64,000 nucleotides of DNA from Nannocystis bainbridge (GCF_028368995.1 NZ_JAQNDL010000001.1:2720001-2784000), one strand, 5' to 3'. Counted from the first letter of the stretch, positions 3,880 through 62,958 are shown. Notes: generated by a model from the sequence alone, not told the origin. Program-made: numbers and translations.

Positions 3880-5117
3880 GGCGCCTTCCCCTTCTCACCT
3901 GCCCCTGCGGGCATGTCCTTCGCGACAGGCACCGCCGCCGGCCCCGCGGCCTTCGTCTCCGCGCTTTTCTCGGCTGCCCCTGGGGGCATGTCCTTCGCGC
4001 CCTGTCCCTCGGGACCTGTCGCTGCGGGCATGTCCTTCATCGCGCTCGGGGCCACCGGCGTGCCCGGGGCGATCGTCGCCGGCCCGCGCACGATCACCGA
4101 CGCGCCCGGCGCCAGCCCGAGCACGATCGCGTCGCCGCCGTCCTCGGCGATCAGGTCGACGTCGTGCGCCACCGCGACCCCGTCCTCGACCCGCATCACC
4201 CGGTCGCGGCCGAGCACGTGGAACACGGCCGCCCGCGGCACGCGCACGCTGCCCGGCTCTTGCCCGAGCGACAGCGTCGCCACCGTGAACATGCCCGGGC
4301 GCAGCACGCTGCCCGCCGGCGAGAACACCGCCTCGACCGTGAACGTGCGCGTCGTCGGCGACACCACCGGCGACACCCGCGTGACCGCGGCCTGGGCCGC
4401 GCCGGAGCCCTCGGCGATCTTCGCCCCGGCCTCGCCGGGCTCGCCGACCAGCGAGTCCTTGAGCGTGATCGTCGCCGGCGTGCCGACCTGGACCAGCGCC
4501 GCGTAGCGCTCGGGCACCTCGACGGTGAGCCGCAGGCGATCGTCGGCGACCAGGTCGAACAGCGCCGTGCCCGGCTTCACGTAGGTCCCCGGGGCCACGT
4601 GGCGGGCCGCGATCGCCCCGGCGAACGGCGCCCGCACGGTCGTATCGCCGAGCTGCCGCGACGCCTGCGAGCGCTGCGCCCTGGCCCCCGCCAGCCGCGT
4701 CCGCGCCCGCTCGAGCTCCTCCTGCGTCGCCACCCCGCCGAGGCTCTCGAGCCGCTTCACGTCGCTGTCCGCCTGCGCCAGCGAGGCCTCGACCTCCGAC
4801 ACCCGCGCGCGGTAGTCGATCGGCCGGATCGCCGCCAGCTCTTGCTCGCGGACCACGCGATCGCCGAGGTCGACCTTCACCTCCGTGATCGGCCCCTCGA
4901 CCCGCGCCGCCACCTGCACCTTCTCGAGCGCCGCCAACGTGCCCGAGAGCGTCAAAATTCGCGGATGCGGCGCGGCCCGGGCCTCCGCCACCTCGACCGC
5001 CCGCGGCTGCGGCCCGGAGGCCGTCTTGCCGGCGTCGGCCGGCGCGCTCGTGCACGCGGCGGCCAGCACGGCTGCGAGCAGGACGACGCGCGCGGGGGCG
5101 AGCGGCACGGCCCTCAC
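3876..5117 (-). CDS. RND periplasmic adaptor (membrane fusion) lipoprotein
   Basis: Lipobox LAAAC, V.ARVEG..GDRV, RAPFAG.I, LRPGMF; true start probably GTG at 5108 or 5117, not the long ORF start; overlaps the permease start by 4 nt. Confidence 0.9.
   Translation of the reverse strand: MRAVPLAPARVVLLAAVLAAACTSAPADAGKTASGPQPRAVEVAEARAAPHPRILTLSGTLAALEKVQVAARVEGPITEVKVDLGDRVVREQELAAIRPIDYRARVSEVEASLAQADSDVKRLESLGGVATQEELERARTRLAGARAQRSQASRQLGDTTVRAPFAGAIAARHVAPGTYVKPGTALFDLVADDRLRLTVEVPERYAALVQVGTPATITLKDSLVGEPGEAGAKIAEGSGAAQAAVTRVSPVVSPTTRTFTVEAVFSPAGSVLRPGMFTVATLSLGQEPGSVRVPRAAVFHVLGRDRVMRVEDGVAVAHDVDLIAEDGGDAIVLGLAPGASVIVRGPATIAPGTPVAPSAMKDMPAATGPEGQGAKDMPPGAAEKSAETKAAGPAAVPVAKDMPAGAGEKGKAP
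3970..4035. repeat. 14-bp periodic palindrome array inside the adaptor C-terminal tail (second cluster at 3895-3932)
   Basis: CATG/CCTG cores at 3987, 4001, 4015, 4029 and at 3898, 3912, 3926; encodes KDMP three times. Confidence 0.8.
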
Positions 5118-5468
5118 ACTGTCCCGCGGCGCCGCCGCGGTCAAGCGGGAGCCGCCCCTGCGACCACGCGCACCGCCCCGATCGGCGCGACGTCGCGTCC
5201 GCCGCGCTCCGGCCTCATCCGTCGCCGCCACCGACGAACGACAAGTCGCGACGCTCGGCGAGTCGGACGCGAGCCCACGATCCGTCCGAGTCAGCACGCG
5301 CGACGACCATCCTCGCGACAGCCGCCGAGGCCTGTCCTGGCCGTGGGTACCTTCCACTTCGGGACGAAAAATAGCGCCGCTGCGGCGAGCCAGCGCGAGC
5401 GAGCGATCCGTCCCGGCCATGCGCGGCGACCATCCTCGTGATGAGCGCCGAGGTCTATGCTCGCGGCG

Positions 5469-6044
5469 ATGCCCCGCCTCCTCGTCGTCCCGCGCTGGGC
5501 CGGGACCCCGCGCTCCGACTTCTACCCGTGGCTCGTCGAGGCCCTCGCGTCCGCGCCCGGGCGACCGCTCGACCCCGTGATCGTCGCCGACCTGCCGAAC
5601 CCCGGCAGCCCGCGCCTCGACACCTGGCCGCCGGCGATCGCCGGGCTGCTCGGCGACGACCCGGCTGTCCTTCGGGACACCTTCGTCCTCGGCCACAGCG
5701 TCGGCTGCCAGGCCGCCCTGCACGCCCTCGCCGCCCTGCCGGCCGGGTCGCAGATCGCCGGCATGCTCGCGGTCGCCGGCTGGTGGACCGTCGACGAGCC
5801 GTGGCCGGCGATCCGCCCCTGGCAGAACAACCTCCCCGAGCTCGAGCGCGTGCGCGCGGCGGTGCCGAGGTTGACCGTCCTCCTGTCCGACAACGACGGC
5901 TTCACCCGCGACCACGCGAGCAACGCCGCGCTGTGGCGCGAGCGCCTCGGCGCGCAGATCGAGCTCGCCCCGGGCGCCCGCCACTTTAATTCCATCGAGG
6001 CGCCGCCCGTGCTCGCCGCCCTGCTGCGCCTCGTGGCCGCCTGA
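5469..6044 (+). CDS. RBBP9/YdeN-like alpha/beta hydrolase
   Basis: GHSVG nucleophile elbow, SDND acid, C-terminal GARHFN. Confidence 0.88.
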   Translation: MPRLLVVPRWAGTPRSDFYPWLVEALASAPGRPLDPVIVADLPNPGSPRLDTWPPAIAGLLGDDPAVLRDTFVLGHSVGCQAALHALAALPAGSQIAGMLAVAGWWTVDEPWPAIRPWQNNLPELERVRAAVPRLTVLLSDNDGFTRDHASNAALWRERLGAQIELAPGARHFNSIEAPPVLAALLRLVAA

Positions 6045-6069
6045 TTCTTTTTAAGAATGACGCCTCATG

Positions 6070-6225
6070 AGACATGCCTCATAGGACATGTCCTTTGGTA
6101 CACACGAATCATGCGCCTTGTCGCTCACCGACGCGCCTGCTGCTACCCGTGGCCACGACCCCCCTACGCGGCCGGGGCACGGATCTGCGCGGCGCTCCGC
6201 CGTCCATGTCCCTTCGGACATGTCA
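6070..6225. repeat. Two short 14-bp-period palindrome clusters
   Basis: CATG at 6073/6087 and 6205/6219. Confidence 0.7.
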
Positions 6226-7844: not shown

Positions 7845-8803
7845 TTCCCTCGCCGTCCATCGCCTGTCGCATGATTCGCCCACCCATCATGGCACCGCGC
7901 GCCTCCTGCCTCGCACCTCGGCGTTCGTCCCCGATCGTCGGCGTCCTGCTCGCGGCCGTCCTGTTGCACATCCTCGCCCCGCGCCCCGCGGCGGCCTGCA
8001 GCAAGCGCCATCAGACCCCGTTCGAGCTGTTCGACCAGGCCGCGCGGGTCGCCGAGGTTCGCGTCGAGCAGACCCCCGGGCCGCGTCAGGCCGGCATGGC
8101 CCGGCTCCGCGTGCTGCGGACCCTCAAGGGCTCGCCGCGCGCCACCCTCGAGGCCGAGGAGACCAACACCAGCTGCCGGATCGGCTACCGCGCCGGCCGC
8201 CGCGCCCTCGTGTTCCTCGGCCCGCGCGGCCAGTCGTTCGGCCTCTACGAGGGTTATCTCGAGGCTCGCGCCGACTCCCCGCAGCTCCGCGCGCTGCGGG
8301 CCTACGCCGCCGCCAACGACCCCGCGGCCCGCGTGCGCGTCCTCGTCGACGCCATCGCCGAGGGCCCCCAGGACCTGCGAGACGAGGCCGCCCTCTACCT
8401 CGCCGATCGCCCCGAGCTGCTGGCCCACCTCGACCTGCCTGCGCGCGCGCGCCTGCTCGCCGCCGCCGACGCGCGTGACCAGCCGCTGTACCTCGTGCTC
8501 GCGCGGCTCGAGCTCGAGGTCCCGCAGCCGCCGCCGAGCCACGGCCGTAATTACTTCGCCGAGCTCGCCGCTCTCGTGCGCCCGCGCGACGAGCTCGACG
8601 ACCTCGGCGCCGCCGCCCTCGCCGACCAGATCGACCTCGGCAACGACGGCTACGACCCGCGGCGGATCCGCGCCATGGACCGCTGCGAGCGGCTCCACGG
8701 GCGCACGCTCCACCCGCTCACCTGGTACGGCCACGGCGTCGCCAGCCACTTCTGGCCCAAGCTCGCCGCCGCCTGCCGCACCGGCGAGCCGGTCACTTTC
8801 TAA
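7841..8803 (+). CDS. Secreted hypothetical protein with TIMP/NTR-like N-terminal domain
   Basis: Signal peptide ending AAA-CS, V.RTLKG and TSC..GY..G...LVF pattern; ATGA overlap with the upstream gene. Confidence 0.6.
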   Translation: MIPSPSIACRMIRPPIMAPRASCLAPRRSSPIVGVLLAAVLLHILAPRPAAACSKRHQTPFELFDQAARVAEVRVEQTPGPRQAGMARLRVLRTLKGSPRATLEAEETNTSCRIGYRAGRRALVFLGPRGQSFGLYEGYLEARADSPQLRALRAYAAANDPAARVRVLVDAIAEGPQDLRDEAALYLADRPELLAHLDLPARARLLAAADARDQPLYLVLARLELEVPQPPPSHGRNYFAELAALVRPRDELDDLGAAALADQIDLGNDGYDPRRIRAMDRCERLHGRTLHPLTWYGHGVASHFWPKLAAACRTGEPVTF

Positions 8804-8810
8804 AAGAAGA

Positions 8811-8843
8811 AGTCCTTCGGGACATGCCCTTTCGCGCATGTCC
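8811..8843. repeat. 14-bp periodic palindrome cluster between convergent genes
   Basis: AGTCC-TTCG-GGACA, TGCCC-TTTC-GCGCA, TGTCC; CATG at 8823 and 8837. Confidence 0.75.
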
Positions 8844-8856
8844 CGAAGTACGCAAA

Positions 8857-9549
8857 TTATTCGGCAGGGCCCATGTCCTCGACGCCGCCCGGGTACACGA
8901 ACGAGTCGCGCGGCGAGTAGAAGCTCGCCGCCGGCAGCACCTGCAGCGGCGACGCCGGGCGCAGCGCGTAGACCGGGTGGGTCTTGTCGAGGAACTCGAT
9001 CGACTGGACCACGAACTCGTCGACCAGCTCGCCGATGTACGGGTAGTTGCCGCCGACCAGGCGGTCGCCGATGCGAGTGACGTACTTGAGGTGCCCGGCC
9101 ACCGTCGTGCCGATCTTCTTGCTGACCTTGGCCCGCGTGCGGATCAGCGGCTTGCCGGCGATCGAAGTCGTGGCCGTCAGCGTGTGCGCGTGCAGCTCGA
9201 GCTCGGTGCTGCCCGGGCTGGCCGGCACCCCGCGCTCGCTGACGTAGGCGCGCACGATCGACGACGAGTTGAAGTAATGGGTGAAGAACCGGGCCGGCGT
9301 GACCCCGTCGGGCGCGAACGAGTCGAGGTCGAGCCCGAGGTAGGTCAGCGTGTAAGCGCCGAAGTTGACCGACTGCTCGGCCGAATCGACGACGTATTGA
9401 TTCATGTACACGGCGCCGTTCGGGGCGGGACGCAGGGCGGGCGGCAAGAGGTCGCGGCACGCACCAGGATCGGCGGGGATCCAGCTGGTATAGAGCATCC
9501 GGCTGTTGACGACGAGCTGCGGCGCGGCGAGCTTCGGGAGTTCGGACAT
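8857..9549 (-). CDS. Acetoacetate decarboxylase-like fold protein
   Basis: About 230 aa, beta-rich, DP...RDLLPP.LRP and FGAY motifs; GC-rich third codon positions. Confidence 0.55.
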   Translation of the reverse strand: MSELPKLAAPQLVVNSRMLYTSWIPADPGACRDLLPPALRPAPNGAVYMNQYVVDSAEQSVNFGAYTLTYLGLDLDSFAPDGVTPARFFTHYFNSSSIVRAYVSERGVPASPGSTELELHAHTLTATTSIAGKPLIRTRAKVSKKIGTTVAGHLKYVTRIGDRLVGGNYPYIGELVDEFVVQSIEFLDKTHPVYALRPASPLQVLPAASFYSPRDSFVYPGGVEDMGPAE

Positions 9550-15291: not shown

Positions 15292-16482
15292 TCAGGGCTT
15301 CATCTCGCAGTCCTTCTCCGGCATGGCGCCGATCCAGTCGCGGATCAGCTGGACCCCGTGCGCGTCGATCACCCGGTTCGGCAGCTCGGGCATCTTGATC
15401 TCCGGGTCGAGCGAGTCCATGCGGAACATGACGATGCTGTCGTCCGGCTTGCCCGGGACGATGTCGTGGTAGCGGCCCCCGGCGCCAGGGCCCGCGGCGG
15501 CCGGCACCTTGCACACGCCATACTTGGCCGGATCGCCCTCCCAGCCGAGGAACACCAGCCCGCTCTTGCCCGCGCCCGCGCCGAGGCGGTGGCAGTGCGA
15601 GCAATTGGCGTGCAGGTACGAGCGGGCCCGGTCGTCGAGCGAGGCGTCGCCGAACGGGTCGACGAACCGCGGCATCGCCTGCATGTCGGGCAGCGACCCC
15701 GCGAACATGTCCTGGGCGGCGAGCCACTCGATCTGGTTGACGGCCTGCCCGTCGACGCTCACCTGCATGTTGAGCTGATGGGTGATCACCCCCAGCAGGT
15801 GGGTGGTGTCGTCGCGCTCGTGGCAGCTCTCGCACTGGTCGAGGTTGGGCACGATGTACTCCTCGACCTGGGCCTCGCCGTCCTCGTCGATGAACTCGAC
15901 GTCGACCCGCTTGCCGATCTTGTGCAGCGTGGCCTCGGTCTGCTCGTCGTTCCACAGGTACGTCACCGACTGCCACGCGCCGGCCTCGAGGTACAGGAGG
16001 CGCGTCTCGATCATCCGCCGCCCCGCGGCCGGGTCGCGGCGGTCGTGGTCGAACCAGAAGTTCTTGATGATCACGGAGCCGTCCGGGAAGCTCCAGTCCT
16101 CGCCGTCGGTGAAGCCGATCGCGCCGCCCTCCGGCAGGACGATGAAGCGGCCCTTGCCGGCCGCGTCGGACCACAGCGGCGCGACCACCGTGTAGGGCAC
16201 CACGCCGTCCTTCGGCCCCAGGTCGACCATCGGGTCGCCGAAGAAATCGTAGTCGCTGAGCTTCGGCAGCGGCCACGGGCCCTCGAGCGGGCAGCGCGTG
16301 GACCCGGCGCACGGGTCGCCGGTGGTCGGCGCGGTCGTGTCGCCGGAGCCGGTGCCGGTGCCGGACGTCGTCTCGGTCCCGCCGGCCGTCTCGGTGTCCG
16401 CCTTGCCGGCCTCGCCGCAGCCGGCACCGACGATCAAGATGGCCGCAAGACCATGTCCTCGCATCCATGTCCTCCGGGGCAT
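15292..16482 (-). CDS. SO2930/HNE_0200-family diheme c-type cytochrome lipoprotein
   Basis: PLWSDAAGK, FPDGSVIIK, IETRLL, and CESCH and CSHCH heme motifs; start may be 16464. Confidence 0.88.
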   Translation of the reverse strand: MPRRTWMRGHGLAAILIVGAGCGEAGKADTETAGGTETTSGTGTGSGDTTAPTTGDPCAGSTRCPLEGPWPLPKLSDYDFFGDPMVDLGPKDGVVPYTVVAPLWSDAAGKGRFIVLPEGGAIGFTDGEDWSFPDGSVIIKNFWFDHDRRDPAAGRRMIETRLLYLEAGAWQSVTYLWNDEQTEATLHKIGKRVDVEFIDEDGEAQVEEYIVPNLDQCESCHERDDTTHLLGVITHQLNMQVSVDGQAVNQIEWLAAQDMFAGSLPDMQAMPRFVDPFGDASLDDRARSYLHANCSHCHRLGAGAGKSGLVFLGWEGDPAKYGVCKVPAAAGPGAGGRYHDIVPGKPDDSIVMFRMDSLDPEIKMPELPNRVIDAHGVQLIRDWIGAMPEKDCEMKP

Positions 16483-16486
16483 GTCG
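16449..16486. repeat. 14-bp periodic array over the cytochrome start region
   Basis: CATG at 16452, 16466, 16480. Confidence 0.75.
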
Positions 16487-16495
16487 GGTCTCCGT

Positions 16496-18066: not shown

Positions 18067-20301
18067 ATGACTCAACGATTTTCTCGCCGCCAATTCTTGC
18101 GTGCGACGCTCGTCAGCGTCGTCTCCGCCGGCCTGTCCGCCTGCAAGGGCGACGGCGACGGGGTCACCGACAGCGACGGCTCGACGGGCACGGACGGCAC
18201 CGAACCGACCGGCAGCACCGCGCCGACGACCGGCGCCGAGGAGCCGCTGCTCGACGGTGAGGCGTACTTTCCCCAGTCGGTGGCGTCCGGCGACCCGCGG
18301 CCCGACAGCGTGATCCTGTGGACCCGCATCGACGACGCTGCGGCGGGCGACGGTGATCTCGAGCTCACCGTGGAGGTGGCGACCGACCCCGAATTCACGG
18401 TGCGCGTCGACCTCGACGCGGCCAGCGCGGCGGTCCCGTCCCGCGCGATGTTCGACCGCTGCGCCAAGGCCAAGATCAAGGGCCTCGAGCCCGCGACCAC
18501 CTATTATTATAGATTCGTTCACAATCGCGAAGACGGCCGATACGCCAGCCAGGTCGGCAAAACCCGCACTGCGCCGGCTCCTGAGGCCGATGTCGCGGTC
18601 CGCTTCGCCTACGCGTCGTGCCAGGATTTCAACGGCCGCTATTATAATAGCTACCGCGGCCTGCTGGCCGAGCCGGATCTGGACTTCTTCGTTCACCTCG
18701 GTGACTACATCTACGAAACTACCGGCGACCCGACGTTCCAGGCGGCCGGCCGCGGGATCGCGTTCTCGGACACGGCCGGGGCGATCGTGTTCAACGAGGG
18801 CACCGAGACCGAGTACTTCGCGGCCAAGAGCCTCAGCAATTACCGCGAGCTGTACCGCGGCTATCGCTCCGACCCGGCGCTGCGGCGCGTGCACGAGAGC
18901 CTGGCGATGATCGCGGTGTGGGACGACCACGAGTTCAGCGACGACTGCTTCGGCGCGACCGCGACCTACTTCGACGGCCGCGTCGACGAGCACGACGAGG
19001 CCCGCCGCAAGCACGCCAACCAGGCGTGGTTCGAGTACATGCCGATCGACTTCGGCGACGACGAATTCGTGTACGACCCGAGCAAGCCGTACCCGCAGGA
19101 CATCAAGATCTACCGCGATTTCCGGTTCGGCAAGCACCTCCACCTGGTGATGACCGACCTCCGCAGCTATCGCCCCGACCACCTGATCCCCGAGGACGGG
19201 TTCCCCGGCGCAGTGGTGCTCGACGAGGCCGCGCTGGTCGAGCAATTCGGCTCGCTGCCCGAGTTCGCCGGGCCGTACGTCGACGACATCGACACCTACC
19301 AGGACGGCGTCTACAAGGACGCGCTGACCGCCGCCGCCGCCGCGCTCGGCTTCGACCCCGCGCTCGTCACCGGCAAGATCGACGCGAACTTCATCAACAA
19401 CACCCTGGCCGCGGTCGACGATGCGACCCCGCCGATCGACGAGGCCGAGCTGGCGACGCTGCCGCGCGGGCTGTCGTTCCTCGGCCTCGGCAAGCGCGGC
19501 ATCCACGGCTCGATCGGCGCCCGCTACTTCGTCGTCAAGCCGGCCTTCGACGCCTGGGCGGCGGCCCGCGCCAAGGCGGAGCCGGCCTCGGTCGACGTCA
19601 TGGGCGCGGCCCAGCGCGAGTGGTTCCTGCAGACCATGAAGGGCTCGACGGCGACGTGGAAGGTGTGGGGCACCGAGTACACGCTGATGCCGCTGGTGAT
19701 CGACCTGACGTCGTTCCCGATCGAGCCGTTCAACCAGCTCTACTACATCAACGTCGACCAGTGGGACGGCTTCAACCCGGCCCGCGACGCGCTGCTCGGC
19801 GAGCTGCAGGCGGTCGACAACGTGGTCGCCATCACCGGTGACATCCACGCCTTCTACGCCGGCACGCCGATGGTCGCCGGCGCGCCCGACGAGAAGATCG
19901 TCGAGCTGGTCGGCGCGGGCATCAGCTCGACGCCGTTCCAGTCGCTGCTGGTGCTGCAGGTCGCGGCCGACCCGACCCTCAGCAGCCTGCCGGGCGCCGG
20001 CATGCTGGCCGCGGCGATCGACGCCCTGTTCACCGGCACGACCACCAACCCGCACCTCGCCTTCGCCGACTCGAGCCGCAACGGCTTCGTCAGCGTGGTC
20101 GTCGACGGGGCCGGGTTCGACGCGACCTTCCACATGCTGAGCGAGAGCGAGTCGCTGATCGACTACGAGGGCATGGACGACGCCCTGGCCGGCAAGTTCA
20201 AGCGCGAGAAGTTCCAGGTCAAGCCCGGCGGGCGCGACCTCTACCGCGACTTCGCCGGCACCTACAAGCGCTGGGACCCGACCACCAACACGTGGGTCTG
20301 A
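18067..20301 (+). CDS. phoD: Alkaline phosphatase D family, Tat-exported lipoprotein
   Basis: SRRQFL Tat motif, FPQSVASGDP, HLGDYIYE, WDDHE, DQWDG, TGDIH. Confidence 0.95.
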   Translation: MTQRFSRRQFLRATLVSVVSAGLSACKGDGDGVTDSDGSTGTDGTEPTGSTAPTTGAEEPLLDGEAYFPQSVASGDPRPDSVILWTRIDDAAAGDGDLELTVEVATDPEFTVRVDLDAASAAVPSRAMFDRCAKAKIKGLEPATTYYYRFVHNREDGRYASQVGKTRTAPAPEADVAVRFAYASCQDFNGRYYNSYRGLLAEPDLDFFVHLGDYIYETTGDPTFQAAGRGIAFSDTAGAIVFNEGTETEYFAAKSLSNYRELYRGYRSDPALRRVHESLAMIAVWDDHEFSDDCFGATATYFDGRVDEHDEARRKHANQAWFEYMPIDFGDDEFVYDPSKPYPQDIKIYRDFRFGKHLHLVMTDLRSYRPDHLIPEDGFPGAVVLDEAALVEQFGSLPEFAGPYVDDIDTYQDGVYKDALTAAAAALGFDPALVTGKIDANFINNTLAAVDDATPPIDEAELATLPRGLSFLGLGKRGIHGSIGARYFVVKPAFDAWAAARAKAEPASVDVMGAAQREWFLQTMKGSTATWKVWGTEYTLMPLVIDLTSFPIEPFNQLYYINVDQWDGFNPARDALLGELQAVDNVVAITGDIHAFYAGTPMVAGAPDEKIVELVGAGISSTPFQSLLVLQVAADPTLSSLPGAGMLAAAIDALFTGTTTNPHLAFADSSRNGFVSVVVDGAGFDATFHMLSESESLIDYEGMDDALAGKFKREKFQVKPGGRDLYRDFAGTYKRWDPTTNTWV

Positions 20302-20340
20302 CCTTTCGGACATGGCCGATCGGGCATGTCCGAAGCGACA
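20299..20340. repeat. Three-unit 14-bp palindrome array starting at the phoD stop codon
   Basis: TGACC-TTTC-GGACA, TGGCC-GATC-GGGCA, TGTCC-GAAG-CGACA. Confidence 0.8.
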
Positions 20341-22532: not shown

Positions 22533-25478
<2,946 letters not shown>

Positions 25479-27125: not shown

Positions 27126-28706
27126 ATGCCTGCACCGATCGTCGTCCCCGATCGCCTCAACATGGTCGAGTGGTTCCTCGACGCCCGCGTCGCCGAGGGC
27201 CTCGGCGACAAGACCGCGATCTACTGCGGCGACGCGCAGGTGACCTACCGCGAGCTGGTGGCCGCGTCGTGTCGCGTCACCAACCTGCTGCGCTCGCTCG
27301 GCCTGCGCATCGAGGATCGCGTGCAGCTGCTGCTGCTCGACACCCCGGAGTTCGCGGCCGCGTACTTCGGCGTGTTGCGGGCCGGCTGCGTGGCGGTGCC
27401 GACCAACACCTGGCTGCTGCCGGCCGACTACGCCTACTACCTCGAGTACGCGCGGCCGCGGGTGGTGATCGTCGACGCCGAGATCTACCCGCAGCTCGAG
27501 CCCGTGTGGCGCGAAGCGCCCTACCCGCCGATCGTGATCGTCGTCGACCGTGCCGGCGAACCTGTCCCGAAGGACACCCTCGACTGGCACGCCGAGCTGG
27601 CCCGCCAGCCCGACACCGCGCGCACCGAGCCGACCTATCGCGACGACTTCTCGACCTGGCTCTCGTCGTCGGGCTCGACCGGCAAGCCCAAGTGCGTCGT
27701 CCACATGCACCACGATTTCGTGTGGAACACCGTCGCCTACGCCCAGCGGACCCTCGGCATCACCCGCGACGACATCACGATCTCCGCGCCCAAGCTGTTC
27801 TTCGGCTACGCGCTGGCCAGCAACATGCTGTTCCCGTTCAGCGTCGGCGGCAGCTGCGTGATGGTGCCCGAGCGCGTCGCGCCCGAGCGCTGGTACGGCC
27901 TGATCGAGCGGTACCGCGCGACCCAGTTCGTGACCGTGCCGACGACGATCGCCAAGATGCTCGACCACCTCGACGAGGCCGGGCGGCGCGACCTGTCGTC
28001 GCTGCACTCGCTGGTCAGCGCCGGCGAGGCGCTGCCGTCGCGGCTGTACCGGCTGTGGAAGCAGTCGACCGGGGTCGAGATCTTCGACGGCATCGGCTCG
28101 GCCGAGATGTTCCACGTCTACATCACCAACCGCCCCGGCGACGTCAAGGACGGCAGCCTCGGCAAGCTCGTCGACGGCTACACCTACCGCCTGATCGACG
28201 ACGACGGGCGCGACGTGCCGCCCGGCGAGATCGGCACCCTCGTGATCACCGGGCCCTCGGCCGGCCAGGGCTACTGGCGCATGCGCGACCAGAGCCGCGC
28301 GACCTTCTGGGGCGACTCGGTCAAGGGCGCCGACAAGTTCCACGTCGACAGCGACGGCTACTTCTGGTTCTGCGGCCGCGGCGACGACATGCTCAAGTGC
28401 TCGGGCGTGTACGTCTCGCCGGTCGAGGTCGAGAACTGCCTCCTCGGCCACCCGGCCGTGCACGAGGCCGGGGTGGTCGGCTACCGCGACGCCGACGGGC
28501 TCGAGCGCGCGGTCGCCTACGTCGAGCTGGCCGCCGGGCACGCCGCCGGCGAGGCGCTGGCCGCCGAGATCCTGGCCCACGCCCGTGCCAACATCGCCGC
28601 CTTCAAGGCCCCGCGCCGGGTCGAGTTCATCGCCACCCTGCCGCGCACCGAGACCGGCAAGATCAAGCGCGGCGAGCTGCGCAAGCTGGCCGCCGCGCTC
28701 ACCTGA
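27126..28706 (+). CDS. Benzoate-CoA ligase family protein
   Basis: SSGSTGKPK, SAPKLFFGYAL, SAGEALP, DGIGSAEMFH, GRGDDMLK, TGKIKR. Confidence 0.9.
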   Translation: MPAPIVVPDRLNMVEWFLDARVAEGLGDKTAIYCGDAQVTYRELVAASCRVTNLLRSLGLRIEDRVQLLLLDTPEFAAAYFGVLRAGCVAVPTNTWLLPADYAYYLEYARPRVVIVDAEIYPQLEPVWREAPYPPIVIVVDRAGEPVPKDTLDWHAELARQPDTARTEPTYRDDFSTWLSSSGSTGKPKCVVHMHHDFVWNTVAYAQRTLGITRDDITISAPKLFFGYALASNMLFPFSVGGSCVMVPERVAPERWYGLIERYRATQFVTVPTTIAKMLDHLDEAGRRDLSSLHSLVSAGEALPSRLYRLWKQSTGVEIFDGIGSAEMFHVYITNRPGDVKDGSLGKLVDGYTYRLIDDDGRDVPPGEIGTLVITGPSAGQGYWRMRDQSRATFWGDSVKGADKFHVDSDGYFWFCGRGDDMLKCSGVYVSPVEVENCLLGHPAVHEAGVVGYRDADGLERAVAYVELAAGHAAGEALAAEILAHARANIAAFKAPRRVEFIATLPRTETGKIKRGELRKLAAALT

Positions 28707-28759
28707 ACCTTTCGACATGTCCTGAAGGACCTGGCCTGAGTACCATGACCGAAAAGACA
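28704..28759. repeat. Four-unit 14-bp array spanning a stop codon, the intergenic gap and the next start codon
   Basis: Units start at 28704, 28718, 28732, 28746. Confidence 0.72.
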
Positions 28760-31655: not shown

Positions 31656-31673
31656 CGGGCTGGGGCGGCATGC

Positions 31674-31748
31674 TGTCCTGGACGACATGCCCTCGCGGGC
31701 ATGTCCTCTACAACATGCCCCCTCGGACATGTCACTCAGGACATGTGC
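31674..31748. repeat. Five-unit 14-bp palindrome array between convergent genes
   Basis: CATG at 31686, 31700, 31714, 31728, 31742; overlaps the last codons (TCPE*) of the cyclo-ligase. Confidence 0.88.
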
Positions 31749-32322
31749 AATCGAGCAGCCCGAGCTCGGTCGCCAGCGCGTGCACGCCGACGTCGTGCGG
31801 CTCCACGGGCAGCGTCTCGACCAGCTCGTCGGCGAAGCACAGGCCCACGCGGACCGGGCGCGAGGCGCTGCGCAGCGGGGCGGTCGCGCCGTCGTAGTGG
31901 CCCTTGCCGTAGCCGAGGCGGACGCCGGCGCGGGTGAAGGCGAGGCCGGGCATCAGCACCAGGTCGACGTCGGCGTCGGCCAGGGTGACGCCGGGACCGT
32001 CGCGCGGCTCGAGCAGGCCGAACGAGGCCGGCGCCAGAGCGGCGAGGTCGGTGACCGCCACGAACTCGAGGTTCTGCCGACGCGGCCCGGCCATGCGCGG
32101 CAGCCACAGCCGTTTTCCGGCCGCCAGCGCGGCGATCAGCAGCGGCCGGGTGTCGGGCTCGCCCTTCACGCCGACGAACGCGGCCACCGAGGTCGCCGCG
32201 CGCCAGCGGGCCTCGCCCAGCACGTGCGCGCACAGCTCGGCCGAGCGGGCCGCCACGTCCTCCGGCCCGCGTTCGCGCCGCCTCGCCGCGCTGTGCGCTC
32301 GAATGTCCGCCTTCGTAAGCAT
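31732..32322 (-). CDS. 5-formyltetrahydrofolate cyclo-ligase
   Basis: EPDT, FGLLEP, PGLAF..G.RLGYGKGHYD, EPHD. Confidence 0.93.
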   Translation of the reverse strand: MLTKADIRAHSAARRRERGPEDVAARSAELCAHVLGEARWRAATSVAAFVGVKGEPDTRPLLIAALAAGKRLWLPRMAGPRRQNLEFVAVTDLAALAPASFGLLEPRDGPGVTLADADVDLVLMPGLAFTRAGVRLGYGKGHYDGATAPLRSASRPVRVGLCFADELVETLPVEPHDVGVHALATELGLLDCTCPE

Positions 32323-35059: not shown

Positions 35060-35067
35060 TCTCTCAT

Positions 35068-35128
35068 AGACCGCAAGGACATGTCCACCGGGACATGCCC
35101 TTTCAACCATGTCTGAAACGACATGCCC
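35068..35128. repeat. 14-bp palindrome array between convergent genes
   Basis: CATG at 35080, 35094, 35108, 35122. Confidence 0.86.
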
Positions 35129-35165
35129 ATCGCGCCGCGCGTCGGCGCGAGCGGCTCCGCTTCGC

Positions 35166-37490: not shown

Positions 37491-37602
37491 TCACATGTCC
37501 TTCGGGGCATGCTCTCCACGAGGTGCTCTCTCTCAAGGACATGTCCTCCGCGACATGTCCTCTTCAGCATGCGCGAGAGGACATGCTCCGAAGAGCATGT
37601 CC
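37491..37602. repeat. About seven-unit 14-bp palindrome array between convergent genes
   Basis: CATG at 37494, 37508, (GGTG 37522), then 37540, 37554, 37568, 37582, 37596 after a 4-nt TC slip. Confidence 0.9.
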
Positions 37603-37616
37603 CGCGCGCCAGCCGG

Positions 37617-40230: not shown

Positions 40231-41307
40231 TCACTCCCAGTGGATCTCGACCAACTTCAGGGCGCCGCCCGGGTCGAGCTCCGACCACGCGGGGCCCTCG
40301 TAATACGTGAGGTAGTCGACGGCGCCGCCGGCCTGCGCGAGCTCGGGGTGGAGCAGCGCGTCCTGGATCGGCGGCGCGCCCTGCAGCGCGGGCGGCCGGT
40401 ACAGCTCGGCCGCCTCGGACCACGGTCCCTCGAGCTGCGGCGCGGTGCGCAGGACCACGACCGGTTCGTCGCGGTCGGCGTAGACCGCCACGAAGGCGCC
40501 GGCGTGGTCGCTCCAGTGCACGCTCATCGCCCCGGCGCCGGCGAACACGGCGCTCGCGCGGCGCGCCGAGGCCGACCAACCGGCGCCGGTGTAGTGGCGC
40601 CAGGCCCCGCGCTCCAGCGCGTGCGCCAGCGGGGCGCGCATCAAGTTGCAGGCGCCGCGCCGACCGCCACAGGTGAACGCGTACAGGTGATCGCCGACGC
40701 TGAGGGCCGCGGCGACGGGCAGCTCGTCGGCGCCGAACAGCAGGGTCGGCTCGGCGCTGCCTTCAGCGACCGCGGGGCGGACTGGCCGGCCGGCGAGGTC
40801 GTCGCGCCACACGGCGATCGAGCTGCCGACGTGCTGGTTGTCGGCGTTGTCCTCGAACTGGATGACCTTGCGGTAGAAGATCAGGACACGCTGGCGCGCG
40901 TGGTCGTGCACCATCGGACCTGGCCAGAGGGACACCCGCGGGCAATCGTAGCTGGCGAGGCACGCGCCGTCGTCGTACGCGAGCCCGTAGCGGGCCTCCC
41001 CGGCGGCGTACGGCAGGAATTCCGGGTCGACCGCGGCAGGGATCGCAAACGGGTGCAGGCCGTCGCGCGCGTCGAGGTCGTCCGTGACCGCGGCGGCCGT
41101 GACGTCCTGGCTCGGCGAGCCCACGTCGGTGGTGACGCGGAACCCCCACAGCGCCCGCGAGCCGAGGCCCACGCTGTGGCCGCCCTGCTCGACAGCGGGG
41201 CCCCCGTCCCGCAGCGGAAGGTCGCCCAGCGGGAGCGCCTCGGCCACCTGCAGCGCCGGCGGAACGCCGCAGCCCGCCAGCATCACGAGACATGTCCCAG
41301 CGAGCAT
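40231..41307 (-). CDS. DUF4185-like beta-propeller lipoprotein (distal half of the 847-aa ORF)
   Basis: Own lipobox MLAGTCLVMLAGC; QGGHSV, SLWPGP, MSVHWS, TAPQLEGPWS. Confidence 0.65.
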   Translation of the reverse strand: MLAGTCLVMLAGCGVPPALQVAEALPLGDLPLRDGGPAVEQGGHSVGLGSRALWGFRVTTDVGSPSQDVTAAAVTDDLDARDGLHPFAIPAAVDPEFLPYAAGEARYGLAYDDGACLASYDCPRVSLWPGPMVHDHARQRVLIFYRKVIQFEDNADNQHVGSSIAVWRDDLAGRPVRPAVAEGSAEPTLLFGADELPVAAALSVGDHLYAFTCGGRRGACNLMRAPLAHALERGAWRHYTGAGWSASARRASAVFAGAGAMSVHWSDHAGAFVAVYADRDEPVVVLRTAPQLEGPWSEAAELYRPPALQGAPPIQDALLHPELAQAGGAVDYLTYYEGPAWSELDPGGALKLVEIHWE

Positions 41308-41353
41308 GCCCGATCGGGCATGTCCTTTTCGCCATGCTTTTTTAAACATGTCC
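41288..41353. repeat. 14-bp palindrome array, with related ~90-bp-period copies at 41437 and 41530
   Basis: CATG at 41291, 41305, 41319, 41333, 41347. Confidence 0.86.
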
Positions 41354-53933: not shown

Positions 53934-54103
53934 GCGGTGTTCTTGCGCGATCGACGAGGATTGTCCACCCGGGCCGCGAACCCCCCCCGCTCGGAGCGCG
54001 GGGACGCGCCCGCGTGAGCAGATCTGACCTCGCGGACAGGTCGAGCGACAGACGCGCGCCGGCGAGAGGGATGTCCCGACGGACAGTTTTTATGAGGGGC
54101 GAT

Positions 54104-54452: not shown

Positions 54453-54536
54453 TGCCCCAAAGGACATGCCTTTTAGAACATGCCCTTTGGAACATGTCGG
54501 ATAGGGCATGCTCTTTCGAGCATGCCCTCTCGAGCT
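54453..54536. repeat. Six-unit 14-bp palindrome array
   Basis: CATG at 54465, 54479, 54493, 54507, 54521. Confidence 0.9.
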
Positions 54537-57809: not shown

Positions 57810-57951
57810 TGGCTCTCGGGACATGTCGATGCGGAGACGGCGGCGCGCGAGTCACGGGTAACATGTCTCTCGGGACATGATGAATCGTGAACGGTTCGAT
57901 AACATGTCCATCAGGACATGATGAATGCGACATGTCCATCAGGACATGTCG
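57810..57951. repeat. 14-bp palindrome clusters upstream of the purA-like gene
   Basis: CATG at 57862/57876 and 57903, 57917, 57931, 57945; TGTCC-ATCA-GGACA twice. Confidence 0.85.
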
Positions 57952-57987: not shown

Positions 57988-58740
57988 TCACGCGCCGTAG
58001 TCGAGCGTGCCGCTGACCACCAGCGCCGCGTGGCGCTTGAGCCAGGCCGTCACCGCGTCGCGGTGGTGCAGCTCCTGGACCAGCGGCTCGCGCAGCTTGT
58101 GGACCAGCGCGGTCTCGCCGAAGTCGTCGGCGATGTCGACCAGCTGCTCCCACGACGCGCTGTCGACCAGCTCGGCGACCAGGTGAGCGTGCAGCGCCTG
58201 CGGCAGGGTCGTGCGTGGGTCGGACACCACCTGGACGATGCCGGCCAGCTCGACGCCCGCGAGGTCGGCCGAGGGCGTGACCGCGGTCGGGTCGGCGCCG
58301 AGGTTGATGAGGACGTCCTGCAGCAGCGCGAAGTGGTGGGCCTCGTCGGCGCGGAACTCGGCCAGCTCCGCGAGCGTCGGCCCGCCCTCCCAGCTGCCCT
58401 GCGCCTCGCACTTGGCGATCAGCGCGTCGAACAGGCGCACGCCGGTGCGCTCGAACGCGAGGCGCTCGCCGAGCTTGTCGAGCAGCAGGTGGACCCGGTG
58501 CCGCGGCACCGGCGTGCCGCCGGCGTTCTCGACCACGCGCAGGCTGGCCGGCGCCGGCATGTGACCGATCAGCCCGACCTCGCCGGCGTACTGGCGCCGC
58601 ACCTCGGCGAGCGCGCGGGCGCAGCCGGGTGAGCTCGGGGCCTCGCGCGCTCCCTCGACCACGGCGGGTCCGTCGGTCGGCGAGAGGTAGATGCCGGTGC
58701 GGTTGAGGGCGAGGTCGGTGGGTCTTTGGACGCGGTTCAT
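57988..58740 (-). CDS. Ferritin-like domain protein
   Basis: NRTG N-terminus, DKLGERLAFERTGVRL, DEAHH, AELVD, QELHH. Confidence 0.85.
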   Translation of the reverse strand: MNRVQRPTDLALNRTGIYLSPTDGPAVVEGAREAPSSPGCARALAEVRRQYAGEVGLIGHMPAPASLRVVENAGGTPVPRHRVHLLLDKLGERLAFERTGVRLFDALIAKCEAQGSWEGGPTLAELAEFRADEAHHFALLQDVLINLGADPTAVTPSADLAGVELAGIVQVVSDPRTTLPQALHAHLVAELVDSASWEQLVDIADDFGETALVHKLREPLVQELHHRDAVTAWLKRHAALVVSGTLDYGA

Positions 58741-60760: not shown

Positions 60761-60971
60761 ATACGGGTCTTTGGCCGGGGTCCGACGGCCTCGCAAGGAA
60801 AAGCGCAGGGGCCTGTGATCCGTTGCGTACCCTCGTGACACTACCTTCCTGCGACGACCGAGCCGGGCGCGGTCGTGCGCCGCACCGGTGGTATTCCGGG
60901 CGACTATCCCGGCCATCGTCGAACAGCCGCCCCTATTTTATCTGCGGCTCCGGATCGGCGCTATTCGTATG

Positions 60972-60995
60972 GGACATGTCCGTTAGGACATGCAA
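60972..60995. repeat. 14-bp palindrome pair in a divergent intergenic region
   Basis: TGTCC-GTTA-GGACA; CATG at 60975 and 60989. Confidence 0.72.
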
Positions 60996-61119
60996 GCGGG
61001 ATAGACAACTCGCGGCGTATGAGCCCGCGGTCGCTGAGGGACGGGATAACTCACGGACCTCAGCGCCCGCCGCGGATCCAACCCCACGGCGGCCGTTTAT
61101 GGCCTGCTATCGTGCGGGG

Positions 61120-62859
61120 ATGCGTATCCGTTCGCGGCTCGTCGCAGCGTTCATACTCATCGCCGGCTGCGGCGATTCGACGGCAAACACCGGCACGAGC
61201 GAGGGGACGAGCTCGACCGGTGAGCCCTCGTCTTCGTCGTCGACGACGGTCGAGACCCCGACGACCACCGGGACCACCGGGCCAGCTGCGTGCGCGCCCG
61301 GTGTGCTCGAATGCGTCAGCGAGACCGAGGTCGCCGAGTGCGGGCCCGACGGCCAGTTCGGCGCGCCGGTGGCCTGCCCCGACGGAGGCGTCTGCGTCGA
61401 CGGGAGCGGCTGCGTCGGCTGCGAGCCCGGGGCGGTCCGTTGCGAGGGCGACGCGCTGCAGCAGTGCAGCGAGGCCGGCGCGTGGGAGGACCAGCTCACC
61501 TGCAGCGCGGCCCAGGGGCTGACCTGCGACGCCGCGGCGATGACCTGCGCGGGCGCGTGCGCGCCGGAGCTGCTGCCCCGGACCGCCTCGGGCTGCGAGT
61601 TCTACGCCCTGACCGCGCTGCAGCTGGGCGAGAACGGCTCGATCTTCGCGGTCGTGATCGAGAACCCGAACGACAGCCCGGTCACCGTCACGATCTCGCA
61701 GAACGAAGACTTCACGCCGGTGATCGAGACGGTCGACGCCGACAGCTTCCGCGTGATCGAGCTGCCCTTCACGCTGAACCTGTCGACCGCGCTGGTCGGC
61801 AAGCTCGAGTTCGACGGGGCCTACCACATCGAGAGCGACCTGCCGGTGCAGGTGGTCCAGTACAACACGTTCAACCTGTCAGCCTCGGCCGACAGCGCGC
61901 TGCTGTGGCCGCGGCACACGTGGGGCACCGACTACTTCGTGTCGTCGTACCCGGCGACCGAGGTCCCGAGCGGCTTCTATCACGGGGCGTGGGCGGTGGT
62001 CGCCGGCGCCGACAAGCTGTCGGTCGAGGCGACCGCGCTGCCGGGCACCAAGTCGAAGGCCGGGCCGGGCATCGGCGTCGACGGCAGCGGCAAGGCGCCG
62101 CTCAACGCCGGCGACGTGCTGCAGATCGTCAGCGACGACGACGGCGACCTCACCGGCACGCGCCTGGTCGCCGACAAGCCGATCCAGGTGCTCGGCGGCC
62201 ACGAGTGCAGCTTCATGCCGGTGGGCGTCGGCTACTGCGACCACCTCGAGGACATGATGCTGTCGGTGCCGCAGCTGGGCACGGAGTACGTGATCGTGGC
62301 CCCGTCGCGGCACAACCCGCCGACGCTGCGCCGCGACCAGGTGGTGCGCGTGGTGGCCAGCGCGCCGAACACCGAGCTGACGTTCGAGCCGCCGATCTTC
62401 CCGCCGATGACGATCGCGGGCGCGGGCGAGTTCGTCGAGCTGGGGCCGAGCAGCGAACACTTCGCGCTCGTCAGCAGCGCGCCGGTGCTGGTGACGCAAT
62501 ACATGGTCGGCTCGACCCATGTGGGCGACTTCACCGACCCGGCGATGCTGGTGACGCTGCCGGTGACCCGCTGGCACGGCACGCACTACGTGCACGCCCT
62601 GCCCGCCTGGCTCCCGGTCGACGTCGACATCGTCGCGCCCACCGGCGCGACGGTCATGGTCGACGGCGCGCCGGTGGCCGGCTTCCAGGACCTCGGCGAC
62701 GCGCCCTACCAGACCGCGCACGTCCGCTTCGACGAGGACGACGGGCTGGTCGAGATCGCCGCCGACCAACCGATCTTCGTGAGCGTCTACGCGACCCGCT
62801 CGGACGCGCCCGCGAGCAGCTTCTGGCACAGCACCGGCGGCCTGCTCGCGCCCGAGTAG
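61120..62859 (+). CDS. IgGFc-binding-protein-type lipoprotein
   Basis: IAGC lipobox, Cys-rich repeats, GCEFY, SADSALL.P..WGTDY, DLTGT, CDHLED, DPAM. Confidence 0.88.
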   Translation: MRIRSRLVAAFILIAGCGDSTANTGTSEGTSSTGEPSSSSSTTVETPTTTGTTGPAACAPGVLECVSETEVAECGPDGQFGAPVACPDGGVCVDGSGCVGCEPGAVRCEGDALQQCSEAGAWEDQLTCSAAQGLTCDAAAMTCAGACAPELLPRTASGCEFYALTALQLGENGSIFAVVIENPNDSPVTVTISQNEDFTPVIETVDADSFRVIELPFTLNLSTALVGKLEFDGAYHIESDLPVQVVQYNTFNLSASADSALLWPRHTWGTDYFVSSYPATEVPSGFYHGAWAVVAGADKLSVEATALPGTKSKAGPGIGVDGSGKAPLNAGDVLQIVSDDDGDLTGTRLVADKPIQVLGGHECSFMPVGVGYCDHLEDMMLSVPQLGTEYVIVAPSRHNPPTLRRDQVVRVVASAPNTELTFEPPIFPPMTIAGAGEFVELGPSSEHFALVSSAPVLVTQYMVGSTHVGDFTDPAMLVTLPVTRWHGTHYVHALPAWLPVDVDIVAPTGATVMVDGAPVAGFQDLGDAPYQTAHVRFDEDDGLVEIAADQPIFVSVYATRSDAPASSFWHSTGGLLAPE

Positions 62860-62860
62860 C

Positions 62861-62958
62861 GGCCCCCAAGGACATGCTCCTCGGAGCATGTCCCCGAGAG
62901 CATGTCCAATGTGACATGCTCTTTTGAACATGCTCTTCGGTGCATGACCGAGCGAGCG
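62861..62958. repeat. Six- to seven-unit 14-bp palindrome array between convergent genes
   Basis: CATG at 62873, 62887, 62901, 62915, 62929, 62943. Confidence 0.92.

Follow-up and report, generated by a model that had tools for sequence, protein, structure and literature searches.

The closest described counterparts of the arrays reported here are the REP/BIME elements of enterobacteria and pseudomonads, with the REPINs: extragenic, clustered and lineage-specific palindromes that occur in hundreds to thousands of copies near stop codons, are enriched between convergent genes, have units of ~35 bp with a shared stem-loop palindrome of 20-40 nt, and possess a cognate Y1/RAYT gene. Other related systems include the DUS/USS motifs of Neisseria and the Pasteurellaceae, which are present in thousands of genus-specific copies, singly or as inverted pairs, often at gene ends and frequently within genes, and are kept across orthologs; HIP1 of cyanobacteria, an over-represented lineage-specific palindrome that is a dispersed single octamer common within genes; and the tandem operators of MetJ (metboxes), the omega repressor (heptads) and Fur (hexamer arrays), in which 2-6 copies of abutting half-sites in exact register lie in the promoters of a few operons. 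Intrinsic (Rho-independent) terminators consist of a G+C-rich hairpin and a following U-tract, and U-tract-less hairpins have been proposed for high-G+C bacteria. How transcription ends and how convergent genes are insulated is poorly understood in bacteria with very G+C-rich and huge genomes, in which canonical terminators are scarce.

In this work, we analysed a 64,000-nucleotide stretch of DNA (the window) from Nannocystis bainbridge, a member of a genus of soil myxobacteria, together with the entire 11-Mb genome. An earlier reading of the window (the original prediction) had reported clusters of CATG recurring every 14 bp, a motif that it did not recognise from the literature; the literature that we searched contains no description of these Nannocystis arrays, and phased CATG arrays are apparently undescribed. 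Within the window, the exact 14-bp spacing of CATG (CATG-N10-CATG) is seen 40 times, against 0.56 +/- 0.88 expected from 100 dinucleotide-preserving shuffles, the largest count of which was 4, and the claimed periodicity therefore stands above shuffled background. Other lags gave counts of 0-7, and sites spaced 14 or 28 bp apart form 21 chains of at least two CATG. Genome-wide, the lag-14 count is 3736 against ~100 expected, and the phase is strict: lag 13 gives 72 and lag 15 gives 262, which is the level of the remaining multiples of three. The autocorrelation peaks that had been predicted at 14, 28 and 42 bp were found, together with further ones at 56 and 70 bp. In total, the genome contains 2074 arrays, 954 of them with at least three CATG, which cover 0.84% of its length; array size has its maximum at 3-6 sites and drops sharply past seven.

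The unit is a 14-bp dyad, TG-YCC-N4-GGR-CA, or equivalently the 10-bp palindrome RRRCATGYYY placed every 14 bp. There are 2891 RRRCATGYYY sites in 92 kb of arrays versus 606 in the 9.0 Mb called as coding. As the original prediction had stated, the units of an array are not copies of each other: neighbouring units are identical in 0.9% of cases and have a mean Hamming distance of 5.9 of 14, and of 2468 neighbouring pairs, 4.0% have the same spacer, versus 1.2% by chance. The quoted examples of co-varying arms do exist, but genome-wide the effect is weak, since fully Watson-Crick arms are found in 15.4% of 2733 units versus 13.6 +/- 0.5% when arms are shuffled. C-A mismatches at pair 3-12 occur close to independence. 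Pairing of the arms as a stem is thus barely above chance and is not selected, and the symmetry of the motif persists in arrays placed after one gene only.

Gene coordinates for the genome were obtained with a crude in-house gene caller. By these coordinates, the arrays lie directly 3' of stop codons, at a median distance of 18 nt, with 62% of 1115 gene-end/array pairs falling 0-29 nt past the stop; in 74 of these pairs, the stop TGA doubles as the TG of a unit. Arrays occupy 671 of 1460 convergent junctions (46%), 659 of 4945 tandem junctions (13%) and 136 of 1458 divergent junctions (9%), the range for divergent, promoter-bearing regions being 2-9%. At tandem junctions, the upstream stop is the closer gene boundary for 270 of 335 arrays, and arrays are generally tethered to the stop codon and not scattered through long spacers. 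The chromosome-wide extent proposed originally is correct, but the arrays are tied to gene 3' ends, a placement that the original prediction had missed, and are no general mark of the chromosome.

All of the long clusters originally listed for the window are present (CATG at 31686-31742, 35080-35122, 37540-37596, 41291-41347, 54465-54521, 57903-57945 and 62873-62943). The array at 31669..31757 (six units, five phased CATG) fills the gap between the convergent genes 30831-31655 (+) and 31732-32256 (-), and its orthologous spot carries five or six CATG in four of five relatives and two in the fifth. The array at 35068..35130 (four phased CATG) begins 10 nt past the stop of 32663-35059 (+), at a convergent junction with 35166-36734 (-), and 3-5 CATG with different spacers follow the same stop codon in all five relatives. 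Two adjoining arrays in different registers (37494..37613; two CATG at 37494/37508 and five at 37540-37596) are flanked by the convergent genes 36906-37481 (+) and 37617-38009 (-); 4-5 CATG are found in five of five relatives, and the RNA fold has z = -7.35. The array at 62861..62949 (six phased CATG) begins 5 nt past the TAG stop of 61303-62859 (+), at a convergent junction with 62985-64295 (-), and has 3-5 CATG in five of five relatives and an RNA fold z of -7.67. Across the array at 41279..41353 (five phased CATG) the crude caller runs a single ORF, 40231-42738 (-); a junction of two genes is more likely there than a position within one ORF. The array at 54453..54536 (six units, five phased CATG) adjoins a block of longer tandem repeats; the orthologous intervals of these last two arrays fall outside the resolvable set of comparisons. 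Two further arrays at 57850..57948 (two CATG at 57862/57876 and four at 57903-57945, the latter enclosing a 28-bp repeat) lie 40 nt past the stop of gene 57988-58740 (-), and no array was found at the orthologous spot in any of the three relatives that were resolvable. The cluster originally given as 57.6 kb exists, but its true position is 57862. When the window was searched with Rfam 15 at the gathering score, the sole match was a tRNA at 32483-32555, and the arrays were without a match.

Arrays were present in 11 of 11 Nannocystis genomes searched and were not found in the sister genera searched. For the window arrays with at least three CATG, an array of at least three is kept at the orthologous spot in 24 of the 28 resolvable comparisons (out of 40, 12 being not resolvable). 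Orthologous arrays keep their position while their spacers differ. Between the genomes G005 and G007, which are 4.8% different overall, the four CATG positions all differ at 3-4%, the arms at 21-33% and the spacers at 31-37% (measured on 70 units from 25 arrays, with another 4 units gapped). For reference, the difference is 6.7% at codon position 3 and 11.5% in the alignable non-coding DNA outside arrays; the neutral rate is uncertain, since no more than 34581 of 50630 non-coding sites were aligned. Arm changes are transitions in 47-80% of cases versus 35-42% in spacers, so that the purine/pyrimidine class is kept. Unit gains and losses between close genomes are few (4 of 74 units gapped). Strong conservation is thus shown, with purifying selection acting on the CATG core while arms and spacers change fast.

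The likeness to REP/BIME elements, which had been named as an alternative, holds for distribution, since the arrays are likewise extragenic, clustered, near gene 3' ends, enriched between convergent genes and confined to one lineage. The defining REP features, however, are absent: the unit measures 14 bp, not ~35 bp, spacers are free without a master sequence, units follow in exact head-to-tail phase, and conservation is centred on a 4-bp core instead of a shared stem-loop. In agreement with the original prediction, which saw no such gene, a search for PF01797 (Y1_Tnp; RAYT) gave 0 matches in the genome (G000, 90.5% complete), with the control positive in 6 of 14 reference genomes. A MITE, which would be a defined element with near-identical copies, terminal inverted repeats and a target-site duplication, was rejected on copy identity and edges: neither arrays nor units show copy identity, and the array edges have nothing more than a further half-site. 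With DUS/USS the arrays share their genus specificity, copy number, conservation across orthologs and position at gene ends, and with HIP1 their over-representation; unlike both, they consist of phased intergenic copies. They resemble intrinsic terminators in lying just past stops, in being foldable and in being bidirectional between convergent genes, but they have a common sequence core at all loci and mostly no perfect stem, and the U-tract is missing: TTTT occurs within 25 nt past the array in 1.6% of 443 cases versus 1.7% at 5992 control gene ends. The abutting half-sites, exact register and copy number recall the operators of cooperative repressors, and the conserved positions around a free centre are familiar from CRP/FNR-type 5-4-5 dyads and operator boxes; unlike these, ~2000 arrays follow stop codons.

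Since ~2000 independent loci share the CATG core, the Y/R arms and the 14-bp phase, a trans-acting factor with sequence-specific recognition is the most economical reading. With a probability of roughly 40%, judged from sequence comparisons, we propose that the arrays are abutting operator-like sites for a putative Nannocystis-specific dimeric DNA-binding protein and function as boundary elements at gene 3' ends. A symmetric protein would recognise the 14-bp dyads on double-stranded DNA, and dimers would bind side by side across 3-6 sites (40-85 bp). Because the arrays sit directly after stops, and especially at convergent junctions, the bound complex would then form a boundary at gene 3' ends; it might block read-through transcription from both sides, or help to organise DNA topology or the nucleoid. 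The protein nature of the reader, its recognition of DNA and not of RNA, and the action of the complex are all inferred. The proposal is favoured, indirectly, by the strict phase, the preferred array size of 3-6 sites, the selection on CATG, the kept position at orthologous loci, the placement at gene ends, and a conservation that holds position by position without covariation, the arms showing no sign of pairing with each other. The stop-codon tether, which suits an RNA 3'-end element equally well or better, counts against the proposal and is awkward for a static roadblock, because polymerase would stall at or before the stop codon; RNA folding, two-site hairpins and strand bias, described below, also count against it. 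We regard as unlikely the more far-reaching possibility of a protein-DNA filament system, in which a genus-specific dimeric protein would polymerise on phased RRRCATGYYY past stops and mark ~2000 gene 3' ends, as a sequence-programmed bidirectional transcription boundary replacing hairpin/U-tract terminators. If true, this would add a so far undescribed class to the terminators or insulators of bacteria.

Less probably, and with a likelihood well below even in our judgement, the arrays may instead be RNA-level 3'-end elements. In a transcript, any two RRRCAUGYYY copies can pair into a 10-bp stem with a 4-nt loop, so that the arrays would form redundant hairpins. These would terminate transcription in both directions without a U-tract or would hold off 3' exonucleases, and a sequence-specific RNA-binding protein or an RNase may take part. 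Besides the tether and the preference for convergent junctions, this fits the folding of array RNA, which in six window arrays is far better than that of shuffles (z = -2.6 to -7.7), and the transition-rich evolution of the arms, which suits G.U intermediates. Perfect 10-bp two-site hairpins are found in 5.0% of 2199 spacers versus 1.8% and 3.5% under two nulls, and 14.5% of 689 arrays contain at least one versus 5.5% and 10.4%. In addition, the sense strand is biased after stratification by replication direction, with U.G against C.A at 182:33 in the co-directional and 148:172 in the head-on group, and GAAA exceeding TTTC in both groups; this may reflect RNA pairing, or transcription-linked mutation alone. 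However, 85% of arrays are without a perfect 10-bp stem and 58% without a stem of at most one mismatch, single units pair hardly above chance, and no T-run follows. Convergent spacers with and without arrays have similar folding energy in this 72% G+C genome, and for pure structure a CATG core common to 2000 loci would be unnecessary, as would a loop length fixed at 4 nt.

It is quite unlikely that the arrays are selfish or drive-maintained repeats, seeded and maintained without host function by an enzyme (transposase-like, a nuclease, or a recombination/uptake bias system) at its own recognition sequence and piling up at gene 3' ends, where harm would be least. The restriction of ~2000 arrays to one genus would imply a burst after the genus split, the distribution is like that of REP and uptake-sequence elements, transposon ends typically carry TG...CA, and some higher-order repeats occur (identical units at C3:1085843; 42-bp repeats at C1:638599). 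Against this reading stand the lack of a Y1/RAYT gene and of a master copy, the rarity of identical neighbours and of unit gains or losses, long positional conservation, the low divergence of CATG bases (3-4% versus ~30% for neighbouring bases), and the tether to stops instead of a spread through long spacers. We give still less credence to a methylation-linked mark, by analogy with GATC clusters and HIP1, in which a CATG (or RCATGY) methyltransferase would modify the sites and a methyl-reading protein would bind phased clusters. In its favour, methyltransferases use 4-bp palindromes like the invariant core, and the genome has one D12-class and ~9 N6/N4-class methyltransferase loci. However, in a co-occurrence profile that covered the D12-class enzyme, D12 occurred well beyond the genus with arrays, in 22 of the 24 genomes of the family, and therefore does not track the arrays; CATG and RCATGY are not avoided outside arrays, and methylation alone leaves the 14-bp phase and the Y/R arms unexplained. 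The methylation alternative of the original prediction has thus gained no support. Slippage repeats, or a chance or compositional artefact, have virtually no probability: although Tandem Repeats Finder picks the period-14 window arrays at low score, the shuffles and the non-identity of units (which also rejects a VNTR, and on which the earlier argument against simple slippage had rested) refute them, as does the comparison with other Myxococcota, where 14-mer arrays in 15 of 400 genomes are exact-copy tandem repeats with at most 5 hits each versus 869 in G000.

Almost half of the convergent junctions in one genus share the same phased motif, and selection holds its 4-bp core while the surroundings change. 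If read by a protein, the arrays would point to an abundant genus-specific DNA-binding factor with ~6500 genomic sites; if read as RNA, to a sequence-constrained terminator or stabiliser of new design. They also mark the genus cleanly and offer, as a natural experiment, a case of register being kept without sequence being kept.

The window also contains smaller clusters. The 3.9-kb cluster is a weaker case, with CATG at 3987 and 4029 and CCTG units between, and the two-CATG clusters at 24405, 51471 and 51824, which lack conservation in relatives, may have arisen by chance. The array at 16440..16495 (three phased CATG) overlaps the 5' end of a - ORF (ATG at 16482 or 16468) and, unlike the other window arrays, is near-identical in relatives. 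Three units with two CATG lie at 6061..6102, 17 nt past the stop of 5457-6044 (+), and at 8811..8852, flanked by the convergent genes 7964-8803 (+) and 8857-9549 (-). At 60963..60992, in a divergent intergenic region, one perfect 14-bp dyad has a CATG on each side, and two CATG are found in four of five relatives. At 20299..20340, in a convergent junction (three units, two CATG; two CATG in five of five relatives), the first unit opens with a TG that belongs to the TGA stop of gene 18097-20301 (+). Similarly, four units at 28704..28759 (CATG at 28716 and 28744) span the 38-bp junction of two + genes; the first gene takes its stop TGA (28704) from one unit and the next gene its ATG (28745) from another, and two CATG are present in five of five relatives.

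The window has a G+C content of 72.1% and contains 265 copies of CATG, of which 40 pairs lie 14 bp apart, 23 lie 28 bp apart and 21 lie 42 bp apart, the remaining distances occurring 0-7 times. In shuffles of the window, CATG-N10-CATG occurs 0.56 +/- 0.88 times (maximum 4) as compared with the 40 observed, which rules out a chance origin of the arrays. All of the long clusters named in the original prediction were recovered in place, and the genome-wide autocorrelation peaks that it had anticipated at 14, 28 and 42 bp are present in the source genome (an assembly of 11.05 Mb in 5 contigs with 39940 CATG, in which the window occupies C1:2720001-2784000): 3736 pairs are found at lag 14, against about 70-130 at nearby lags not divisible by three, followed by 2073 at lag 28, 1586 at 42, 751 at 56 and 383 at 70. 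Chaining of these sites yields 2074 arrays that cover 92413 bases, or 0.84% of the genome. Two CATG are present in 1120 arrays, roughly a hundred of which may be due to chance, and three or more in 954, namely 347, 276, 210, 91 and 24 arrays with 3, 4, 5, 6 and 7 CATG and six longer ones with a maximum of 16.

When the 3736 units are aligned in register, the consensus is TG-YCC-N4-GGR-CA, where CATG falls at the joins of abutting units. In the left arm, T (57%) and C (31%) predominate at position 3, and C at positions 4 (77%) and 5 (75%); in the right arm, G is the commonest base at positions 10 (71%) and 11 (72%), and position 12 holds A (61%) or G (25%). The central spacer of four bases is near evenly composed of A, C, G and T, about 50% G+C despite the 72% of the genome. 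Neighbouring units have a spacer in common in 4.0% of 2468 pairs (1.2% by chance), are identical in 0.9% and differ by a mean Hamming distance of 5.9 of 14, so that the claim that units are not copies of each other holds and simple slippage is ruled out. The bases flanking CATG are anti-correlated (odds ratio 0.37), with GCATGC and ACATGT under-used relative to ACATGC/GCATGT. Outside the outermost CATG, the inward half-site persists (T 0.49, G 0.69, C 0.56 and 0.57) and no outer purine run is found; therefore, arrays tend to finish on a complete TG...CA unit, and the TG of this terminal unit is often that of a TGA stop codon.

The co-variation of arms that had also been noted stands only in part. 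Complete Watson-Crick pairing across the three variable arm positions is seen in 15.4% of 2733 units as against 13.6 +/- 0.5% after shuffling, and if G.U is permitted, the share that pairs on one given strand is 28-32%; since arm covariation is nearly absent, the single-unit hairpin is ruled out as a selected feature. The examples quoted are instead explained by hairpins formed between two sites (10-bp stem, 4-nt loop), which are perfect at 5.0% of 2199 spacers, compared with 1.8% when sites are shuffled genome-wide and 3.5% when their order is shuffled inside arrays. At least one such hairpin occurs in 14.5% of 689 arrays (5.5% and 10.4% in the respective nulls), an excess that is real yet small. 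The predicted folding of arrays is strong. The comparison of convergent spacers with and without arrays (best 60-nt dG medians, -32.5 and -30.1) is uninformative because everything folds at 72% G+C.

Placement was analysed with 7868 genes called by a crude, home-made codon-usage caller and with an independent coding-strand test of the flanks. On this basis, the 954 arrays with at least three CATG comprise 303 in convergent flanks (+,-), 215 in (+, non-coding), 164 in (non-coding, -), 88 with non-coding sequence on both sides, 69 in (+,+), 61 in (-,-), 27 in (non-coding, +), 26 in (-, non-coding) and a single one in divergent flanks (-,+). An array of two or more CATG is present in 671 of 1460 convergent intergenic regions (46%), 659 of 4945 tandem regions (13%) and 136 of 1458 divergent regions (9.3%); the corresponding values for three or more CATG are 32.7%, 6.4% and 2.3%. 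Measured from the nucleotide that follows the stop codon, the first CATG lies at 0-29 nt in 687 of 1115 gene-end/array pairs (62%). Two distances form spikes, namely 9 nt (74 cases), at which TGA doubles as a unit's TG, and -5 (24 cases), at which stop and CATG overlap. TGA makes up 83% of the stops at arrays, the same as in the genome. Tandem junctions with an array are longer than those without (median 306 vs 136 bp), and in them the median gap between array and upstream stop is 18 nt and that between array and downstream start 201 nt, with 270 of 335 arrays closer to the stop. This proximity indicates that arrays are tethered to gene ends, beyond being merely tolerated away from promoters. 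A canonical intrinsic terminator is ruled out, since the T-run is absent: it follows 1.6% of 443 arrays and 1.7% of 5992 control gene ends.

Three sites in the window have particular contexts. The four-unit array at 28704-28759 extends across a 38-bp junction of two plus-strand genes, where one unit gives the TGA stop and another the ATG of the next gene (inside the CATG at 28744); two CATG are kept in all five relatives. The 3-CATG array at 16440-16495 overlaps the 5' end of a minus-strand ORF and, unlike the others, is almost identical in four same-genus relatives (G005, G007, G010 and G001), probably as part of a coding sequence. At 60963-60992, in a divergent, promoter-side region, a single perfect 14-bp dyad is bordered at either end by CATG; 4/5 relatives retain it, and it could represent ordinary operator use of an array site.

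Five other genomes of the genus share synteny with the window at 87-90% identity. At two loci examined by eye, the array directly follows the same stop codon in every species, with variable unit number and spacers; the flanking coding sequence is near-identical between relatives and the array interior is scrambled with its register kept. For the eight arrays of the window with at least three CATG, 28 of 40 genome comparisons were resolvable, and conservation at orthologous loci, on which the original prediction had staked itself, is seen in most of them: at least three CATG are found at the orthologous spot in 24, two in 1 and none in 3, all three absences being at 57903. Rates were estimated from 267 kb of synteny between one species pair, G005 and G007 (95% identity). 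Differences per site are 0.031, 0.023 and 0.067 at codon positions 1, 2 and 3 and 0.115 in aligned non-array non-coding sequence. In 70 units from 25 arrays (4 more units had gaps), they are 0.04 and 0.03 at positions 1-2, 0.21, 0.23 and 0.24 in the left arm (3-5), 0.33, 0.34, 0.37 and 0.31 in the spacer (6-9), 0.24, 0.33 and 0.30 in the right arm (10-12), and 0.04 and 0.03 at positions 13-14. Transitions account for 47-80% of arm changes and 35-42% of spacer changes. This contrast in rates and the transition bias indicate purifying selection on CATG, on whether an arm base is a purine or a pyrimidine, and on the spacing, the rest being free, with the caveat that the neutral rate is poorly fixed, a third of non-coding sites being unaligned.

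The arrays are essentially confined to the genus. A strict two-site pattern has 134 matches in the source genome and is present in all 10 other genomes of the genus (1 to 92 matches), but in 0/14 other genera of the family and 0/16 genomes from other families of the class. The reversed pattern, run as a control, had no match in any genome. Across all bacteria and archaea, with one genome per species, 75 of 78 loci belong to Nannocystis, Nannocystaceae bacterium or Myxococcales bacterium records and the other three are single strays. Runs of four CATG spaced 14 bp apart number 869 in the source genome and at most 5 per genome in 400 other Myxococcota, where the 15 genomes with any contain exact-copy tandem repeats. 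When 200 kb of each of two sister genera were scanned blindly for phased 4- or 5-mers of any sequence, nothing comparable emerged, whereas 200 kb of the source genome gave a strong signal. In the sister-genus genome G013, a 12-bp periodicity of TGCA was ruled out as an analogue: at about 2677000-2679000 of its contig C13 (stretches L178-L179), it is produced by 93-bp coding repeats rich in Cys codons.

The source genome has a strong GC skew (about +/-0.06 to 0.10 per 250 kb), and the T3/G12 versus C3/A12 asymmetry of units follows its sign, so that array interiors record replication-strand mutation bias. The raw sense-strand asymmetry is largely this effect; a residual bias survives stratification by replication direction and is inseparable from transcription-linked mutation. 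Contig C3 carries two of the longest arrays, at 1237916-1238185 (16 CATG over 20 units) and at 1487048-1487205 (12 CATG), the latter near a switch of the skew from positive to negative about 1.5 Mb into the contig, which is a likely replication terminus.

Among known elements, REP/BIME sequences are alike in distribution, but the arrays fail three REP features, namely the RAYT transposase, a shared stem-loop sequence and selected pairing. No Y1 transposase was found in the source genome, in agreement with what had been noted for the window, so a RAYT-driven REP is ruled out, and the arrays belong to none of the MITE, slippage repeat and canonical terminator types. Rfam gave no match to arrays in the window, its sole match being a tRNA gene (32483-32555, plus strand). 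In full-text searches of freely accessible articles, we found no description of the motif in Nannocystis or myxobacteria. We class the arrays as a new form of dispersed extragenic palindromic repeats at gene ends; there is a modest but fair chance that they amount to a new protein-based boundary system.

The sequence evidence points to a sequence-specific trans-acting reader, since a purely structural cis-element would have no need of one shared 4-bp core across 2000 loci and 11 species, or of a loop of exactly four bases. The symmetry of the motif, which holds also for arrays that follow only one gene, the conservation of its positions independently and not in pairs, the strict phase and the size optimum are characteristic of adjoining sites bound by a symmetric DNA-binding dimer. 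Dyads of 5-4-5 form are typical of several helix-turn-helix families, and tandem boxes in exact register are known for a few cooperative repressors. Our main reading, with a probability of roughly 0.4, is that such a putative dimer occupies the dyads on double-stranded DNA and that the bound array behind the stop codon may act as a 3'-end boundary. Several results count against this reading or favour one at the RNA level, which we consider possible but rather unlikely: the tether to the stop codon, the strong predicted folding, the two-site hairpin excess and the residual sense-strand bias, though the raw asymmetry mostly follows GC skew. A static roadblock at, or a few bases from, the stop codon would also stall the polymerase too early. 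A repeat maintained by selfish spread or drive would fit the genus-wide burst and the REP-like distribution, but RAYT is absent, the copies lack identity, the unit number is stable and the arrays are tethered to stop codons, all of which make it improbable. The least probable of these readings is a methylation-linked one of CATG. Among the methyltransferases of the source genome, which include N6/N4-class enzymes, the D12 class was profiled, and its sole member is family-wide.

Candidates for the reader were sought among ten small genes adjoining the rare promoter-side arrays. None belongs to a DNA-binding family: the matches are to GFA, NUDIX, hexapeptide transferase, ferritin-like and YceI families, and five genes are without a match. 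Codon-bias ranking of small genes was dropped as a screen because known abundant proteins were not enriched. The 10-bp palindrome RRRCATGYYY at the centre of the motif is present as a string in 47 papers, the top listed of which are mostly on p53, where it serves as the consensus half-site. For this reason a p53-type domain was sought in the source genome; none was found, in a search run without a positive control, and the match is taken as a coincidence.

Other repeats accompany some arrays. Longer tandem repeats at 54095-54420 and 54600-55175 adjoin the array at 54465; one has periods of 47/88/135 bp, and the remainder, rich in G+C, have periods of 24-120 bp, among them a 60-mer present in 3.5 copies at 96% identity. 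In relative G001, the orthologue of window 35060-35165 (stretch L083) is a 487-bp spacer with a post-stop array plus a higher-order repeat of roughly 60-90 bp that has one or two motif units per copy, and a similar 54-57-bp repeat lies at 306354-306485 of contig C1 in the source genome. The CTC-rich 9/15-bp repeats and 18/33-bp repeats at 24729-24843 and 17652-17754 of the window are probably coding low-complexity stretches.
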